Shown here: positions 11,597 to 17,360 of the stretch, in pieces
How positions within the stretch are numbered: position 1 is the first letter of the stretch
Layout of the letters: every line of letters begins with the position of its first letter
Source of the DNA: a virus
DNA: 64,000 bases
Strand: one strand, 5' to 3'
IMG/VR virus record: IMGVR_UViG_3300005466_000024
Location: 64,001 to 128,000 of that record
Translations under genes and position numbers: made by a program
The notes under the pieces: model-generated
The model's input: only the letters and a program-made list of their open reading frames with translations
The model's database searches: none
What the model was told of the DNA's origin: nothing

Positions 11597-14026
11597 CTAA
11601 TCCCATTCCGGTGTGACACCCGTCACGTATTCGTATTGTTCTGCCAGTTCCCGTGCGATATCCGCCGACTCGCGTGCCTGCCCGGCCATAATGGCAGGCC
11701 AGTCGGCCTGGAGCTGGGATTCGTGCGGCGAGTTCAGCAGGGCGTAGAACCCGGGATCGTGCACGAGATCCTCCATGCGGGGGACGGGATGGCGGGCGAT
11801 GACCTCGCGACGGCGCACCGCGTCGGTGACGCGTTGTTCGGAGGCGCGCCGCGCGCTGCCGTAGGAACTCGGCCCGCGTTCGAACTGGCTCAGTTTGCGG
11901 GTGTGCCCGTTGGTGGCGGCGGCGCGGGGGGCACCGGCGCGCAGGTCGTCGGACTCCTCGGGGCGCGCCCGATTGCGCGCCACCTCCACGGGAGGTGGCG
12001 CTGCCCCGAGCGGGGGCATGCCCGGCCCACCTGGGGGCGGGCCACCGGCCTGATCGTCCTCCATTCCCGGCGGTGGGGGTGGCGGCATCGGCACGGTGCC
12101 GGGTAGCAGTCCCAGCTGGCCGGCGGGACTCATCTGCGCGGCCTGCTGTTCCATCTGCTTCTGCTGGGTTTCCATCAGGTCGGTTTGGGCGAGCTGTTGG
12201 CGCAGCACCAGGGTCTGGGTCAGCCATTGGGCCAGTTCGGCCGGGTACGGCAGTTCCTTCTGGTCGATGATCTTCTGGGCCTTGGACATGGCCTCGGCCT
12301 CGGCGACCAGCTTGTCGACCTTCTCGTTGCCCTGGCGCACCAGTTCCTGGTCGAATTGCACCGGCAGGTTGACTGCCATGGTTTTGTCGGAAATCGGAAT
12401 CCCCATCTGCTTCAACTGGGTGATGAACGCCCGCTCTGTTTGTTCGTCCCGCAAATTCAGCGAGGAGAATCGGATTTCGGGGATCAGCAGCTTGGGCGCA
12501 CGCACCACCCTTTTCTCCCCGGTCTCCGGATCCTCTTCGATGACCTCACGGTACAAGGGGCGCCGCACCCCACCCTTGAGTTCGTAGTCGAAGTGCTCCT
12601 GGGCCTCGGCGATGACCTCCATCCGCTTGCGGATGTGCTGGACGACCTTGCGTTGGAAGCCCTTCATCAGCAGCTCGCACACCTCGCGGTTGAGGGCGGA
12701 GGAGGCGTAGGTGCCCGCCGCGGCGGTGCCGCCCATCACCAGCGCCGACCCGATCCCCCATGCCTGCATCAATTTCATGTCGATGCGTTCGTAGTCCTGA
12801 TCGAAGCGCGGCACCGCTTCGCGGCCGAACACCGGTTGGATCTGCAGCCCGAAGTGATGGCACATCAGCTTGAAGTCGGCGGCCAGCGCGGACTGGAAGT
12901 CGTCGCGCAGATCATCGAGTTCGCTTTGGTCGGGGATCCATGGTTCGCCGTCGCCCATGTCCTGGATGCCGAGGGTGGCCAGGATCAGCGGGCTGTAGAG
13001 CCGGTCGGCCACCGAGTCCTGGGCGGCGTTCAGGCTCTCCTCCATCAGCAGGGTGCCGAACGAGCGCATCAGGAACGGGGTGCCCCGCAAGTCCCAGGGG
13101 CTGGTCTTGTTGACGATGCGACTCCACAGGGCCTCGGAGATGTCCAGGCCGTCGTCCTGGGTGGCCGCGGAGATGACCTCCGGATAGTGCTTGACCAGCT
13201 GCTGGTACTCCCAGGTGCGTTCCTGGCGTTCGCTGTGCGATTCCTCGCCCAGCGCCATGCCCTGCGGGCCGGCGCGCAGCGATTCGACCATGTCCTTGAC
13301 CAGCAGCTGCACCCGCTCCTCGGTGACGAACAGGCTCTTGGAGACTCGCACCATGTCGGGGTTGAGGATCTCCTCGGAGCTCCAGATGCCCAGCTCCTCG
13401 TTGAAGTGCGCCAGCGAGGTCACCTCGCCGCTGATGTAGTACTCCCGGCCCAGGCATTCGGGCAGCCATTCCTCGTAGTTGAGCTGGTTGAGGAACATGT
13501 CGGAGTAGAAGTTCTCGATCTGCGGATCCTTGGACACGAATTCCAGGCCGGTGAGCGGGAAGCGGGCGTAGATGTCGATGAGCAGCGGCACCAGGTCGTG
13601 GATGCAGTAGAACAGTCGACTCCAGGCCCGGGCCTCCGACAGCTGTTTGGGGTCGGCGATGTCCAGTGGGATGCCCTTGTCCTGCAGCGACATTCCGGGG
13701 GTGCGTATCTTGGGCAGGGCCATGGTCAAATCGGAACCGGTGCGGCGCAGCCCTCCGGTACGCGCCGCGTTGGCCAATCGGGAGCGGCGCATCTGTGCGC
13801 GCACTGTGCGGGTATTCTCCGACAGCGCCCCGGGGGTGTTGACCATGCCCTCGACCTGTTTGGCGGTGATGCGGGCCTGCACCGGGGACTGGGGCAGGCC
13901 GGGGTAGCCGGCGGCTTTGAGCCGGCGCAGTTCGGTGTCGAAGCCGCCCGTCACCAGTCCCGACGAACTGCGGCTGACGCCGCGCCGATCGGTGACGCTA
14001 AATCCTCGAGGGCCTGGGGCTGTCAC
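11597..14026 (-). CDS. Portal protein
   Basis: 809 aa in the head module; segments (PLLIDIYARFPLTGLEF, WSSEEILNPD, AQDSVADRLYSPLILATLG) resemble Bxz1-like portals. Confidence 0.75.
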   Translation of the reverse strand: MTAPGPRGFSVTDRRGVSRSSSGLVTGGFDTELRRLKAAGYPGLPQSPVQARITAKQVEGMVNTPGALSENTRTVRAQMRRSRLANAARTGGLRRTGSDLTMALPKIRTPGMSLQDKGIPLDIADPKQLSEARAWSRLFYCIHDLVPLLIDIYARFPLTGLEFVSKDPQIENFYSDMFLNQLNYEEWLPECLGREYYISGEVTSLAHFNEELGIWSSEEILNPDMVRVSKSLFVTEERVQLLVKDMVESLRAGPQGMALGEESHSERQERTWEYQQLVKHYPEVISAATQDDGLDISEALWSRIVNKTSPWDLRGTPFLMRSFGTLLMEESLNAAQDSVADRLYSPLILATLGIQDMGDGEPWIPDQSELDDLRDDFQSALAADFKLMCHHFGLQIQPVFGREAVPRFDQDYERIDMKLMQAWGIGSALVMGGTAAAGTYASSALNREVCELLMKGFQRKVVQHIRKRMEVIAEAQEHFDYELKGGVRRPLYREVIEEDPETGEKRVVRAPKLLIPEIRFSSLNLRDEQTERAFITQLKQMGIPISDKTMAVNLPVQFDQELVRQGNEKVDKLVAEAEAMSKAQKIIDQKELPYPAELAQWLTQTLVLRQQLAQTDLMETQQKQMEQQAAQMSPAGQLGLLPGTVPMPPPPPPGMEDDQAGGPPPGGPGMPPLGAAPPPVEVARNRARPEESDDLRAGAPRAAATNGHTRKLSQFERGPSSYGSARRASEQRVTDAVRRREVIARHPVPRMEDLVHDPGFYALLNSPHESQLQADWPAIMAGQARESADIARELAEQYEYVTGVTPEWD

Positions 14027-14050: not shown

Positions 14051-14428
14051 CTATGAGATTCCTCCAGCGACATCGCTTGTGATTTGCCGGAGGCATATCT
14101 CCGTATACCATGCCTCATCTGGTACTTCTGGATATGCCTTCTCTATTAGAGCCACCTTGAATGACGGATAGATCAGCGAACCCCCATCTTCCAAGGAAAA
14201 GCTGATATCCCTGACGACGCCGGTCCCTTCGTAGAGCAGCCCGGCCAACCGGCACTCGACCTGATCACCCGGTCGAAACGGAACGGTTCGCATCAAAAAT
14301 CCCAATGCGCGGGCCACACTGGGGCCGGGCAGCTGCGCCACGCATCCCACGCAGTACTCCAGCCCGCGAGAGTCGGTGCGCACGACTTCGGCGACCTTCC
14401 TGCAGTTGGTGCACAGCCCGACGGTCAT
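14051..14428 (-). CDS. Conserved hypothetical protein (N-terminal CxxC...CxxC, SH3/KOW-like barrel)
   Basis: MTVGLCTNC...YCVGC...FRPGDQVECRLAGLLYEGTGVV; ATGA overlap with the upstream stop at 14425. Confidence 0.6.
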   Translation of the reverse strand: MTVGLCTNCRKVAEVVRTDSRGLEYCVGCVAQLPGPSVARALGFLMRTVPFRPGDQVECRLAGLLYEGTGVVRDISFSLEDGGSLIYPSFKVALIEKAYPEVPDEAWYTEICLRQITSDVAGGIS

Positions 14429-14886
14429 GTCTGCCGGGGTCGGCCGGGGTGCAGTACCCGTTCGGTCCACCGCTGGTTGCGGTCGCGCTGGTGCCAGTCG
14501 CGCGGGGGTGGTTTCTTCTCGGCGTTGGGGACGGGCGGGTGGTGGTGGGGCCAGTCGTCCTCGGTCTCGTCGTCTTCCGTCGACTCCCCTTGCTTGGCGA
14601 TGATTACCCCTCTCCGTACGGGCACCTCGCGGCAGATGATCTTTTCCAGTGCGGCTTCCCGGCCGTCCCCGCCAGTGCCGATGACGTACGAATTCCATTG
14701 GTTACCGCATTTACACCGATGGAAGCCACCTGGAGTGTCGAATTCCTGTCCGCAATCGCAGGCGAACTTTTCGGCCGCCGTGGTGATGTATCCGTTTAGA
14801 AAGTGGTCGAAGTCCCATCCCGCGACCTTGCGGTGCGCGGGGCCCCATCCCCATTCCGCGCCCGCTACGCGCGGGCGCGTCCGGCT
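14425..14886 (-). CDS. -1 frameshift extension (153 aa, Cys-rich) of the 14865..17360 protein
   Basis: Open -1 frame SRTRPRVAGAEWGWGPAHRKVAGWDFDHFLNGY...FACDCG...HRCKCGNQWNSYVIG...ICREVPV; no ATG/GTG/TTG until 14625; begins at a slippery heptamer. Confidence 0.75.
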   Translation of the reverse strand, partial: SRTRPRVAGAEWGWGPAHRKVAGWDFDHFLNGYITTAAEKFACDCGQEFDTPGGFHRCKCGNQWNSYVIGTGGDGREAALEKIICREVPVRRGVIIAKQGESTEDDETEDDWPHHHPPVPNAEKKPPPRDWHQRDRNQRWTERVLHPGRPRQT

Positions 14887-14892
14887 TTTGGG
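14857..14892 (-). other. Programmed -1 ribosomal frameshift signal
   Basis: C CCA AAA (14892-14886) in the 0 frame, 6-nt spacer, hairpin CGCGCCCGC-GCGTA-GCGGGCGCG (14879-14857) spanning the 0-frame TAG. Confidence 0.8.
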
Positions 14893-17360
14893 TCGTCCCC
14901 GCCCCGCTTCCGCTGGTCCTGCGCACCGAACAGGTGCTGGCGCAGCTGGGACTTGGCCCGCTCCCCGACGCCCCGCTCGTTGGCGAATGCTTCGATGTCG
15001 CTCTCTCCGCCACGCGGTGCGCCGGGTGATTTGTCCACCCAGTCGTAGTAGTCGTCGATGACGCCACTGGTGCGTTGAGTGTCCGGGCCGCCCTCTTTCC
15101 GGACCGCCCCATCATCTTTTGGGCGCCCACCTCGTTTCGCGGCCCGTGCCGGGCCTTGCGGCATTGTCTCCACAGCGGCCATCGCCGGCTGCGGCGTATG
15201 CCCGACCGCCTTGTACCACTTGTCGTGCGAGAACCGGTCGTTGTCGGCCTTGAACATGTCGGCCAGGCCCTCGGCCAGCGGCCCCTTGTGTTCTGGTGGT
15301 AGCCCGGCGACCAGCTTGGCCATCTGCACGTAGTGCTTGCGGCTCATCGCCATGGCGACCATCTCGCGCAGTGATGCGGCGAGCTGCTGCGGGTCCGGGG
15401 GCGCGGCTCCCTGATCTGCGGCGGCGGGAGGCGCAGCAGCCGGGCCCGACTGGTCCGCAGCGGCCGGTGGTGGGGCACCGCCACCGGCCTGCGCCATCCC
15501 CGCGGGTGGCTGCGGCAGCACGTTGACCGTGCCCGCCGGCGGCTGCACGTTCAGCGGGTTGGCGGCCTGCATGGCCTGCTCCTCTTGCTGGACGATCTGC
15601 AGGGCCTGCTGCAGGGCGCCCACGCCCTGCTGGAATTCCTCGGCCTTCTGGTTGAGCAGCTGGGTCAGCGCCTCGTCGGCCTTCTGCAGGTAGTCGGGGG
15701 CGGCGGTACGCCGACCGGCTCCGATTTGATGGTGGGGGTTGTTGGTGGTCCAGCCAGGTCGCCCACGCCTGTTCCACTCCTCCGCGCTCAGCCCCTGCTG
15801 TACCCAGTCCGGATCCTGATGGCGAGGGTGTCCCGGGTGGTCCTCCGACTGCTCGGCGCTGTGTCGCGATGCCAGGTAACCCTGGCCGGTACCGAACTCC
15901 TCTGCCCCCACCGCGTCGGGCGCCTTGGGGTGCTTGTTGCGTCGTGCCGGGTCGGGGTTGCGCACCTGGCCGGGTGGTAGACCCACGATCGCGCCGTGAC
16001 CCTCACCCTCGCGCCGGGAGGCGGGTTTCTTCTTGCGGGGCTGATCGGTCTTGCGTCGCAGCGCAGCGAGCACCGTGTAGTACTCCCGGTCGGGACGTTT
16101 GGCCGCCCACACCTCCAGGGAGTCCACCGACGGACGTACCCGGCGTTGTGCACACCAGGCCGCGAACTTAGCCGCGGACTTGGCGAAGTCGGTGTCGGCG
16201 GGATCCCCGGTGTGTTCGGTGACCGGGGACTCGGTGTCGATGAACCGGTCCCGGACCTTCTCCCGGGCGCCCTGGTCGATACGGTCGAGGTAGCCCTTGA
16301 AGTCGCCCTCGGGGATCAGGTCGCCCTTCGACGGCCGGAAGGTCACGTCGTTGTTCATCGCCGGACCGGTCTTGTCGGCGACCCGTGATTCCTTCTCCTT
16401 GTGGTACTTGCGGGCGTGTTCCTCGTTCTCGTGGCAGCCGGGCCAGCAGGCGACACGGGCCGCCTTCGGTCGGCTCATGTCCTCGATCTTGTCGCAGGTT
16501 CCGGGGTGCTTGCCGTGCACCGACGGCATGTTGCACACCGACTTGGCGTCGTTGAGGTCTTTTTCGGTGCCGACTGGGAAGCTGCCGTGTGGTCCTGCGA
16601 AGGGGCCGGATTCCTTGGCCACGTCGCCGTCGCCGCGGTAGCTCTCGGCTTGATGTCGGCTGGACTGTTTGTCCTGGAAGTTGCGTAGCGGTTCGCCCTT
16701 GCGGCGGCGGCCGTCCTCGACCTGGTGGTAGATCTTGCCGCAGTACGCGTCGGGATCGGCGGCGTTGCTGTTCTGTCTGGTGCAGTCCTCCCAGCCGGAG
16801 TAGCCCGCGAACGGGCCGTGCAGCCGGTCGCTGTCGGCATTCTTGCGGGAGGCATCGTGGTGCAGTCGCGACGGATCGACCGATTGCACGATGCTTCCTG
16901 CCGGTGTCTTGCCGGGCCCCTGAATGTCGCTGGGGATCCCCGGCGCATAGGCGCCGGTACCGGTGCCGGCCTGAGCCTGCTCGTCGGCTCCCCCCATGGT
17001 CATCCCCGGTGCTGGCACACCGGGTCCCCCGAACGGGCTGTCGACGCTCAGGCCTCCGGAGGGGCTGCTGGGGTCCACGTCGGCCCCCAGCTTGGCCCGG
17101 AACTCGGCTTCCAGTGGCTTGAGGACGCGCCGGATCACCCCGGATCGCGGGAACACGTGCGGGGTCATGGTGCGGATGGCGTCGTCGCGGATCAGCGCCA
17201 GCCGGTCCCGGTATTCCTCGAGGTCCCTGGCCGCGAACAGAAACGACCCGAACCGTTCGCGGACGTCGTACACGGCAGCGGCCAGCTGGTTGGCGGCCTC
17301 GCGCTGCTGGTACTTGATTTCGCTGTCCGACGCCACCAGGTTCTCGAACATGCCGCTCAT
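14865..17360 (-). CDS. Large modular head-associated protein (831 aa; about 978 aa if frameshifted)
   Basis: Helical N-terminus, small Cys-containing modules (GPFAGYSGWEDC...DPDAYCGKIYH; GSFPVG...SVCN...TCDKI), coiled-coil; located between lysis cassette and portal. Confidence 0.7.
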   Translation of the reverse strand: MSGMFENLVASDSEIKYQQREAANQLAAAVYDVRERFGSFLFAARDLEEYRDRLALIRDDAIRTMTPHVFPRSGVIRRVLKPLEAEFRAKLGADVDPSSPSGGLSVDSPFGGPGVPAPGMTMGGADEQAQAGTGTGAYAPGIPSDIQGPGKTPAGSIVQSVDPSRLHHDASRKNADSDRLHGPFAGYSGWEDCTRQNSNAADPDAYCGKIYHQVEDGRRRKGEPLRNFQDKQSSRHQAESYRGDGDVAKESGPFAGPHGSFPVGTEKDLNDAKSVCNMPSVHGKHPGTCDKIEDMSRPKAARVACWPGCHENEEHARKYHKEKESRVADKTGPAMNNDVTFRPSKGDLIPEGDFKGYLDRIDQGAREKVRDRFIDTESPVTEHTGDPADTDFAKSAAKFAAWCAQRRVRPSVDSLEVWAAKRPDREYYTVLAALRRKTDQPRKKKPASRREGEGHGAIVGLPPGQVRNPDPARRNKHPKAPDAVGAEEFGTGQGYLASRHSAEQSEDHPGHPRHQDPDWVQQGLSAEEWNRRGRPGWTTNNPHHQIGAGRRTAAPDYLQKADEALTQLLNQKAEEFQQGVGALQQALQIVQQEEQAMQAANPLNVQPPAGTVNVLPQPPAGMAQAGGGAPPPAAADQSGPAAAPPAAADQGAAPPDPQQLAASLREMVAMAMSRKHYVQMAKLVAGLPPEHKGPLAEGLADMFKADNDRFSHDKWYKAVGHTPQPAMAAVETMPQGPARAAKRGGRPKDDGAVRKEGGPDTQRTSGVIDDYYDWVDKSPGAPRGGESDIEAFANERGVGERAKSQLRQHLFGAQDQRKRGGDDPKAGRARA

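Follow-up and report, generated by a model that had tools for sequence, protein, structure and literature searches.

In an uncultured soil actinobacteriophage, the large gene that opens the head module very probably undergoes programmed −1 ribosomal frameshifting. The gene is on the minus strand and adjoins the portal gene region in a stretch of 64,000 nucleotides (nt), which we analyzed as a whole and call the window (bases 64001-128000 of the complete 180.7-kb IMG/VR virus record IMGVR_UViG_3300005466_000024; 66% G+C). Its 0-frame open reading frame (ORF; 14865..17360, minus strand) encodes 831 amino acids (aa), belongs to the phrog_2922 family (E 8e-55), and ends with a TAG at 14867-14865, where most ribosomes would stop. 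A fraction of them would pause on a hairpin that starts 6 nt after the slippery heptamer C CCA AAA (14892-14886). There the P-site tRNA-Pro and the A-site tRNA-Lys could re-pair one base upstream (CCA to CCC, AAA to AAA). The slipped ribosomes would read the −1 frame for 153 codons, giving a 978-aa isoform with a C-terminal Cys4 β-domain, and would terminate at a TGA that is coupled to the beginning of DUF7245, the gene that follows. The hairpin would stimulate the slippage, and both isoforms presumably function in head assembly or in the virion. The slip signal, the presence of the break in real DNA, the selection on the −1 frame, the collinearity of the slipped product with its homologues, and the conservation of the cassette in other lineages were all established computationally.

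The slip site, referred to as site B (14886..14892, minus strand), is in phase with the 0 frame, its CCA and AAA codons encoding Pro824 and Lys825. A 6-nt spacer (14885-14880) separates the heptamer from a perfect 9-bp G/C stem, in which 14879-14871 pair with 14865-14857 around a 5-nt loop (14870-14866). This candidate stimulatory hairpin occupies 14857..14879 (minus strand). The 0-frame stop comes six codons after the heptamer and straddles the loop and the 3′ arm: its U and A are in the loop, and the 3′ arm begins with its G. No stop interrupts the −1 frame between 15111 and the TGA at 14427-14425, so that the extension (14425..14886, minus strand) consists of 153 codons beyond the slip (14886-14428) and the TGA. 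The first ATG, GTG, or TTG in this frame is a GTG at 14625, 89 codons past the heptamer. An earlier reading of the window by a model, from its letters and ORFs alone (hereafter the original prediction), had described the ORF, the heptamer, the 6-nt spacer, the 9-bp stem, and the 153-codon −1 frame in the same places on the minus strand, and had stressed the missing early start codon; all of this was borne out.

The heptamer is not enriched in the window as such (4 copies of CCCAAAA vs 3.6 expected), and two of the four copies are in phase within the 831-aa ORF. Homology confines the frame change to about nine codons, between the 0-frame RKRGG motif and the 0-frame stop, and the heptamer lies inside this interval. 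From base composition, we estimated a chance of about 1% for an in-phase X XXY YYZ (Y = A or T) in a stretch of this length. Codon choice is also unusual here. In this phage, CCA makes up 16% of the Pro codons and AAA 23% of the Lys codons, so CCA-AAA would be expected at only about 3.5% of Pro-Lys pairs. CCA AAA with a C before it encodes both of the linker Pro-Lys pairs and none of the other Pro-Lys pairs in the genes. This biased choice supports selection at the nucleotide level. The Arg-Gly-Gly codons just 5′ of the heptamers (15126-15134 and 14895-14909, minus strand) are conserved, G-rich, and Shine-Dalgarno-like, e.g. GAGGTGG before the upstream copy. Like the corresponding element of dnaX, they could serve as a 5′ stimulator. 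Their distance to the heptamers is shorter than the dnaX spacing of about 10 nt.

A sequencing or assembly indel would leave a similar trace: the true genome would contain a single 978-aa ORF, one base of which was lost near the A4/C3 run. Most homologues are indeed single ORFs, and the break is located beside short homopolymers. However, the identical 831-aa ORF and junction DNA were found in at least four other assemblies from different samples (JGI 3300005330, JGI 3300005544, ENA ERZ27265385, and ERZ27264386), and a variant about 97% identical at the junction region came from an unrelated run (locus L007, run SRR9179559). L007, which shares 80% identity with the window over the whole protein, keeps the heptamer, the TAG, the stem, and the −1 ORF. 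The site B heptamer is identical in L004-L007. The homopolymer runs are only 3–4 nt long, and in eight further lineages the reading frame also breaks at a slippery heptamer, with the shift in the same direction. An indel is therefore extremely improbable. The original prediction had held that homologues with a single fused ORF would point to such an error and refute the frameshift. The two parts are fused in 55 of 89 homologues, yet the break is real DNA, conserved, and under selection, and the slipped product is collinear with the fused homologues; the fused forms do not refute frameshifting.

The comparison with L007 also revealed the frame in which the extension is read. The extensions of the window and L007 differ by 13 substitutions, and 12 of these change a third codon position of the −1 frame. 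In that frame, 11 of the 13 are synonymous and two non-synonymous (ratio of non-synonymous to synonymous rates, dN/dS, ~0.05; binomial P = 5e-6), and the extension is under strong purifying selection in the −1 frame. The first substitution occurs 17 nt after the heptamer start. This C-to-U change turns a G-C pair of the stem into G.U with the pairing kept; it is synonymous in the −1 frame and would be Ala-to-Val in the 0 frame. In the 180 nt upstream of the cassette, all four substitutions are synonymous in the 0 frame. The pattern indicates that translation enters the extension at the heptamer or immediately past it, in the −1 frame and without a separate start codon.

These data bear on the possibility that the break is a genuine inactivating mutation, which would leave the extension as an untranslated remnant and the 831-aa protein as the only product. 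The fused forms look ancestral, and two members of the family, L017 and Phrappuccino, have no slip site at all, so variation is tolerated. A remnant would not be expected to have remained under purifying selection since the window and L007 separated. Its stop codon is still coupled to the next gene through an ATGA overlap, and its four Cys residues and 15 invariant positions are intact. A dead remnant is thus very improbable.

Alternatively, the locus could encode two separate proteins, the extension being initiated independently, either at a non-canonical start or by termination-reinitiation after the TAG. Split relatives give this idea some weight. In L008 (5437-5444) and L010 (1421-1428), an upstream stop is followed by an ATG 6 nt later, at the junction of the window, and Gordonia phage Stormageddon (L046) has two genes, gp8 and gp9, the second with its own ATG 13 nt after the upstream stop. 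Possible in-frame starts are also present close to the stop in L043 and L044. In the window, by contrast, the −1 frame lacks ATG, GTG, and TTG for 162 codons (15111-14625), and from ~14985 to 14800 it also lacks any Leu, Ile, or Met codon. The two nearby ATGs (14854 and 14848) are in the +1 frame. The conserved domain starts 13 codons past the slip site, upstream of any possible start, and the −1 frame already shows selection 17 nt past the first base of the heptamer, ahead of the 0-frame stop. Independent initiation is unlikely, though the least improbable of the alternatives considered.

The same two isoforms would also arise by transcriptional slippage, if RNA polymerase inserted an extra base while copying the A or C run and ordinary translation of the altered mRNA then gave the long form. 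One related locus, L041, contains an A7 run. The runs in the window are A4 and C3 only, far below the approximately nine identical bases typical of bacterial transcriptional slippage (Atkins et al. 2016, PMC5009743). Moreover, the conserved X XXY YYZ phase and a hairpin 5–8 nt downstream are features of ribosomal rather than polymerase slippage. We consider polymerase slippage to be about as improbable as an inactivating mutation, and return to ribosomal frameshifting in what follows.

Searches with tblastn matched 219-223 phage records with the halves of the gene, including those of phages such as the cluster C mycobacteriophage I3, Phrappuccino, Myrna, and Gordonia and Rhodococcus phages. 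In every listed record with both parts matched, the two halves lay in one annotated coding sequence, in the same frame, and the order big gene–DUF7245–portal was kept in the phage homologues. The phrog_2922 profile itself spans both halves, the N part matching at positions 582-735 and the extension at 925-1022 (E 1e-23). Among 89 metagenomic homologues, the Cys4 domain was within the same ORF in 55. We constructed the virtual product of a −1 slip at site B (825 + 153 = 978 aa). It aligned across the junction, in single high-scoring segment pairs, with the one-ORF proteins P0003, P0031, P0023, P0018, P0026, P0045, and I3 gp94. Two landmarks flank the slip in these alignments: RKRGG precedes it by three residues, and W.GWG..VAGWDFDH follows at a distance of about 12 residues.

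About 40 loci were gathered by an alignment-based scan of IMG/VR and by retrieving homologues with a ..GG.PKG terminus. When IMG/VR was scanned with the extension by itself, no relative was retrieved, and an alignment-based query was needed. In eight other diverged lineages, the N part and the Cys4 part occupy different, overlapping frames, and the shift is −1 in all of them. Each broken locus has an in-phase X XXY YYZ at most eight codons from the 0-frame stop. The heptamer is C CCA AAA in L009, L021/L023, L033, L042, and L043, G GGA AAA in L019, A AAA AAA in L041, and C CCT TTA in L044 and L045. The encoded residues vary accordingly among lineages (Pro, Gly, Lys; Lys, Phe/Leu), and the slipperiness is constant. 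The distant L009 has the same 6-nt spacing and the same loop with the TAG, on a stem of different sequence.

The RGG..(P/G/K)K linkers of the family are all encoded by a slippery heptamer, also in the fused ORFs. There, a slip would shorten the product (truncate-type) rather than lengthen it (extend-type). The −1 frame stops after 1–5 codons in the fused L011, L013, L016, L020, L024, L026, and L027; L012, L028, L008, and L010 show the same truncate-type behavior with an early −1 stop. Across the fused relatives, the −1 stop comes 0–5 codons after the heptamer. Hairpins are found 5–7 nt downstream of the heptamers in the truncate-type fused relatives (L011, L013, L016, L020, L024, L026, L027, L012, and L028). 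In the cluster C phages, Gordonia phage Skog (L034), and L038, the heptamer is C CCT TTC and the −1 stop follows two codons later. The original prediction had proposed alignment of homologous loci from Bxz1-like phages as a check for a conserved signal. L007 keeps all parts of the signal, and the cluster C homologues are fused, with the C CCT TTC arrangement instead. That heptamer (..RRPF..) is in phase about 100 codons before the Cys4 domain in I3 gp94 (L003:4158-4164), L036, L039, L034, and L038, with a weak hairpin of 4 bp. It is possible, judging from these sequences, that it directs an unannotated truncating frameshift in the cluster C phages and Skog.

The association of heptamers, stops, and stems was then expressed in numbers. 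For heptamers that have a stop within eight codons, in one frame or the other, the frequency is 1.09 per 1000 codons in the ORFs of the family and 0.25 in neighboring ORFs. A perfect stem of at least 5 bp starting 5–8 nt past the heptamer was found at 18 of 27 sites, as compared with 12% of random nearby positions (P = 6e-11). For stems of at least 6 bp, the values were 14 of 27 sites and 4.9%. The stem sequences differ between lineages, and the stop codon is typically in or beside the loop, so that a one-base change of register sets whether the loop stop closes the 0 frame or the −1 frame. Extend and truncate layouts are mixed among the branches of a tree built from the Cys4 domain, which forces at least 3–4 switches. 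The clade of the window is sister to L008 and L010 (split) together with L011 (fused, truncate-type), all with the same junction. L015 (2978-3740) is a further locus, in which stops and about 760 nt separate the N part from a Cys4 part in the same frame. Taken with the other assemblies, the selection on the extension, and the collinearity, these lineages support the predicted programmed −1 frameshift with isoforms of 831 and 978 aa.

The 831-aa ORF contains a second slippery heptamer, which the original prediction had missed, as it had the family-wide nature of the signal. This site A (C CCA AAA; 15117..15123, minus strand, read 15123-15117) is in phase at Pro747-Lys748, in the linker KRGGRPK, 77 codons upstream of site B, and is kept in L007. 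It is of the truncate type: after a slip, the −1 frame reads AGA and then TGA (15114-15112). RNAfold predicted an imperfect, moderate hairpin starting 7 nt 3′ of the heptamer (15085..15109, minus strand; −18 kcal/mol, z −1.1), which is weak evidence alone. In the alignment, site A falls at the linker used for extend-type shifts by L009, L019, L021, and others, and in fused relatives the sites homologous to it meet −1 stops within 1–5 codons. L044 and L045 have the two-site layout as well, with C CCT TTA. Site A probably yields a third, shorter product of about 749 aa. The gene of the window may thus give three nested products of ~749, 831, and 978 aa.

Several observations weigh against programmed frameshifting at site B, or against its generality. 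The folding energy of the site B hairpin is no better than that of shuffled sequences of the same composition (z = −0.7 and −1.4; 66% G+C); the non-random feature of the hairpin is its position, not its energy. Only ~3% divergence separates L007 from the window, so that site B of the window is represented by one lineage. The other lineages have their extend-type sites in another linker, about 77 codons further upstream in the alignment, and some extend-type relatives (L021 and L043) are without a clear hairpin. The split forms that have their own ATG (L008, L010, and Stormageddon) imply that the two parts can work as separate chains, and covalent fusion is not obligatory in the family. Finally, the phage is uncultured, and we infer both the occurrence of slippage and its efficiency.

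With these points considered, we compared the gene with known frameshift systems. It combines a slippery heptamer, a 3′ structure, a stop followed by a start-less −1 ORF, and conservation with selection, and it belongs with the canonical phage −1 frameshift cassettes. The closest precedents are C-terminal extensions of phage head proteins by −1 frameshifting, which are described by Atkins et al. 2016 (PMC5009743) and Garcia et al. 2004 (as cited in PMC10885494) for gene 10A/10B of T7/T3, the major head protein of Lactobacillus phage A2, and Listeria phages A118/A500. In those systems as well, some of the molecules gain a folded C-terminal domain through a slip close to the 3′ end of a head-module ORF, the signal consists of a heptamer and a 3′ structure, and relatives may or may not frameshift. 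Unlike those proteins, the product of the window gene is not the major capsid protein. It is encoded upstream of the portal, has 831/978 aa, and is known from sequence alone, and the added domain is a Cys4 β-domain rather than an immunoglobulin-like one. Phage A2 possibly slips at C CCA AAA as well.

The reversal of polarity has its parallel in dnaX. The E. coli dnaX gene uses a −1 frameshift to make the short one of the products tau and gamma, and the polarity is reversed in a few bacteria (PMC5009743). When the efficiency is close to 50%, changing one nucleotide can reverse which product depends on the slip (PMC5009743). In a similar manner, the phrog_2922 family uses one conserved cassette in both polarities, with site B extending and site A truncating. 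Homologous sites with an immediate −1 stop in the fused relatives suggest a polarity-reversible site of the dnaX type. Differences from dnaX are that the protein belongs to a phage structural module and is not a polymerase subunit, that the heptamers are C CCA AAA, G GGA AAA, and C CCU UUN instead of A AAA AAG, and that one phrog_2922 gene can carry both polarities at two sites.

We see an even chance that the phrog_2922 family carries an ancient, unannotated −1 frameshift switch in its basic linkers, flipped repeatedly among extend, truncate, and split layouts, with three nested isoforms (~749, 831, and 978 aa) from the gene of the window, and possibly including I3 and the Bxz1-like phages. 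The mechanism is a textbook one, and phage head proteins extended by a −1 slip are known; what goes beyond the routine is the unannotated gene family, which includes cultured mycobacteriophages, the repeated polarity reversal, and the two-site layout. Polarity change of a frameshift cassette has so far been documented mainly for dnaX, and the comparative pattern represents a natural experiment on it. It suggests that, at the start of their head module, big actinobacteriophages encode a large protein whose short and long forms are made in a fixed ratio. Relatives infecting Mycobacterium smegmatis and Gordonia are in culture, which makes the family-level prediction directly testable.

The canonical −1 slip, the fixed ratio of a short and an extended protein that we propose, and the location in a morphogenesis module of a tailed phage also recall lambda G/GT. 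We rejected an identity as a tail assembly chaperone of this kind: the protein has 831 aa, its gene lies between endolysins and portal and not beside a tape-measure gene, and it has no sequence relation to G/GT. On the coding strand, the order is two endolysins, small genes, the gene of the 831-aa ORF, DUF7245 (14051..14428, minus strand; Pfam PF23897, E 1e-35), and portal (11597..14026, minus strand; phrog_2833, E = 0). Next come a 1222-aa protein, a 952-aa protein with a head-maturation protease domain, and the major head protein. This order of endolysins, portal, protease, and major head protein indicates that the gene opens the head module, and the original prediction had been right to place it there and not among the tail chaperones.

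The conserved core of the extension covers its residues ~21-99 (14596..14832, minus strand) and is all-β. Across 27 aligned sequences, it has 15 invariant positions, among them four Cys in a CxC...CxC arrangement, which form a putative metal-binding knuckle; in the window, their codons are at 14760, 14754, 14715, and 14709. All 15 positions, including the four Cys, are intact in the window's extension. An AlphaFold2 (AF2) model gave an all-β core for residues 21-72 of the extension, with a predicted local distance difference test (pLDDT) score of ~88–90. The extension had 0 matches in a sequence-profile search of the PDB and no significant match in Pfam; Foldseek against the PDB returned nothing at E ≤ 1e-3, and the best Z of a wide VIA-align search, 3.4, was at noise level. 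The zinc-binding module named in the original prediction is putative; we infer zinc binding from the four invariant Cys residues. Another short, Cys-containing module (..HGPFAGY..C..PDAYCG..) is present within the N part, at approximately 16650-16900 (minus strand; residues 161-243). Its counterpart is downstream of the slip site in L021 (2278-2532), L023, L033, and L041 (4594-4773). The modules of the phrog_2922 family thus appear to be shuffled between both sides of the linker.

Megablast of the locus against 50,697 phage records gave no match, Pfam returned nothing significant for the 831-aa part or the extension, and an ESM Atlas search with the 831-aa part gave no usable match. In the literature on the heptamer in phages, on DUF7245, and on the virion proteomics of phage I3, we found no report on the family. 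As had been foreseen in the original prediction, gene callers split or truncate the gene: they report a 66-aa fragment, or they stretch the DUF7245 gene to 215 aa. For this reason, the 978-aa product is missing from annotations. The 215-aa call (14051-14698, minus strand; gene 5663-6310 in L005) starts at an upstream ATG and overlaps the extension. It is an artefact of the missed frameshift, because the Pfam match begins at residue 1 of the 125-aa version; the phase of the substitutions supports the frame of the extension. The TGA of the extension overlaps the ATG of DUF7245 (14428) as ATGA, and the same 4-nt overlap is found in the fused homologue of Phrappuccino (gp44/gp45). The portal ORF contains an in-phase C CCA AAC at 12183-12189 (minus strand), with a −1 stop two codons on. 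This site is probably due to chance, since control ORFs show such sites at ~0.25 per 1000 codons.

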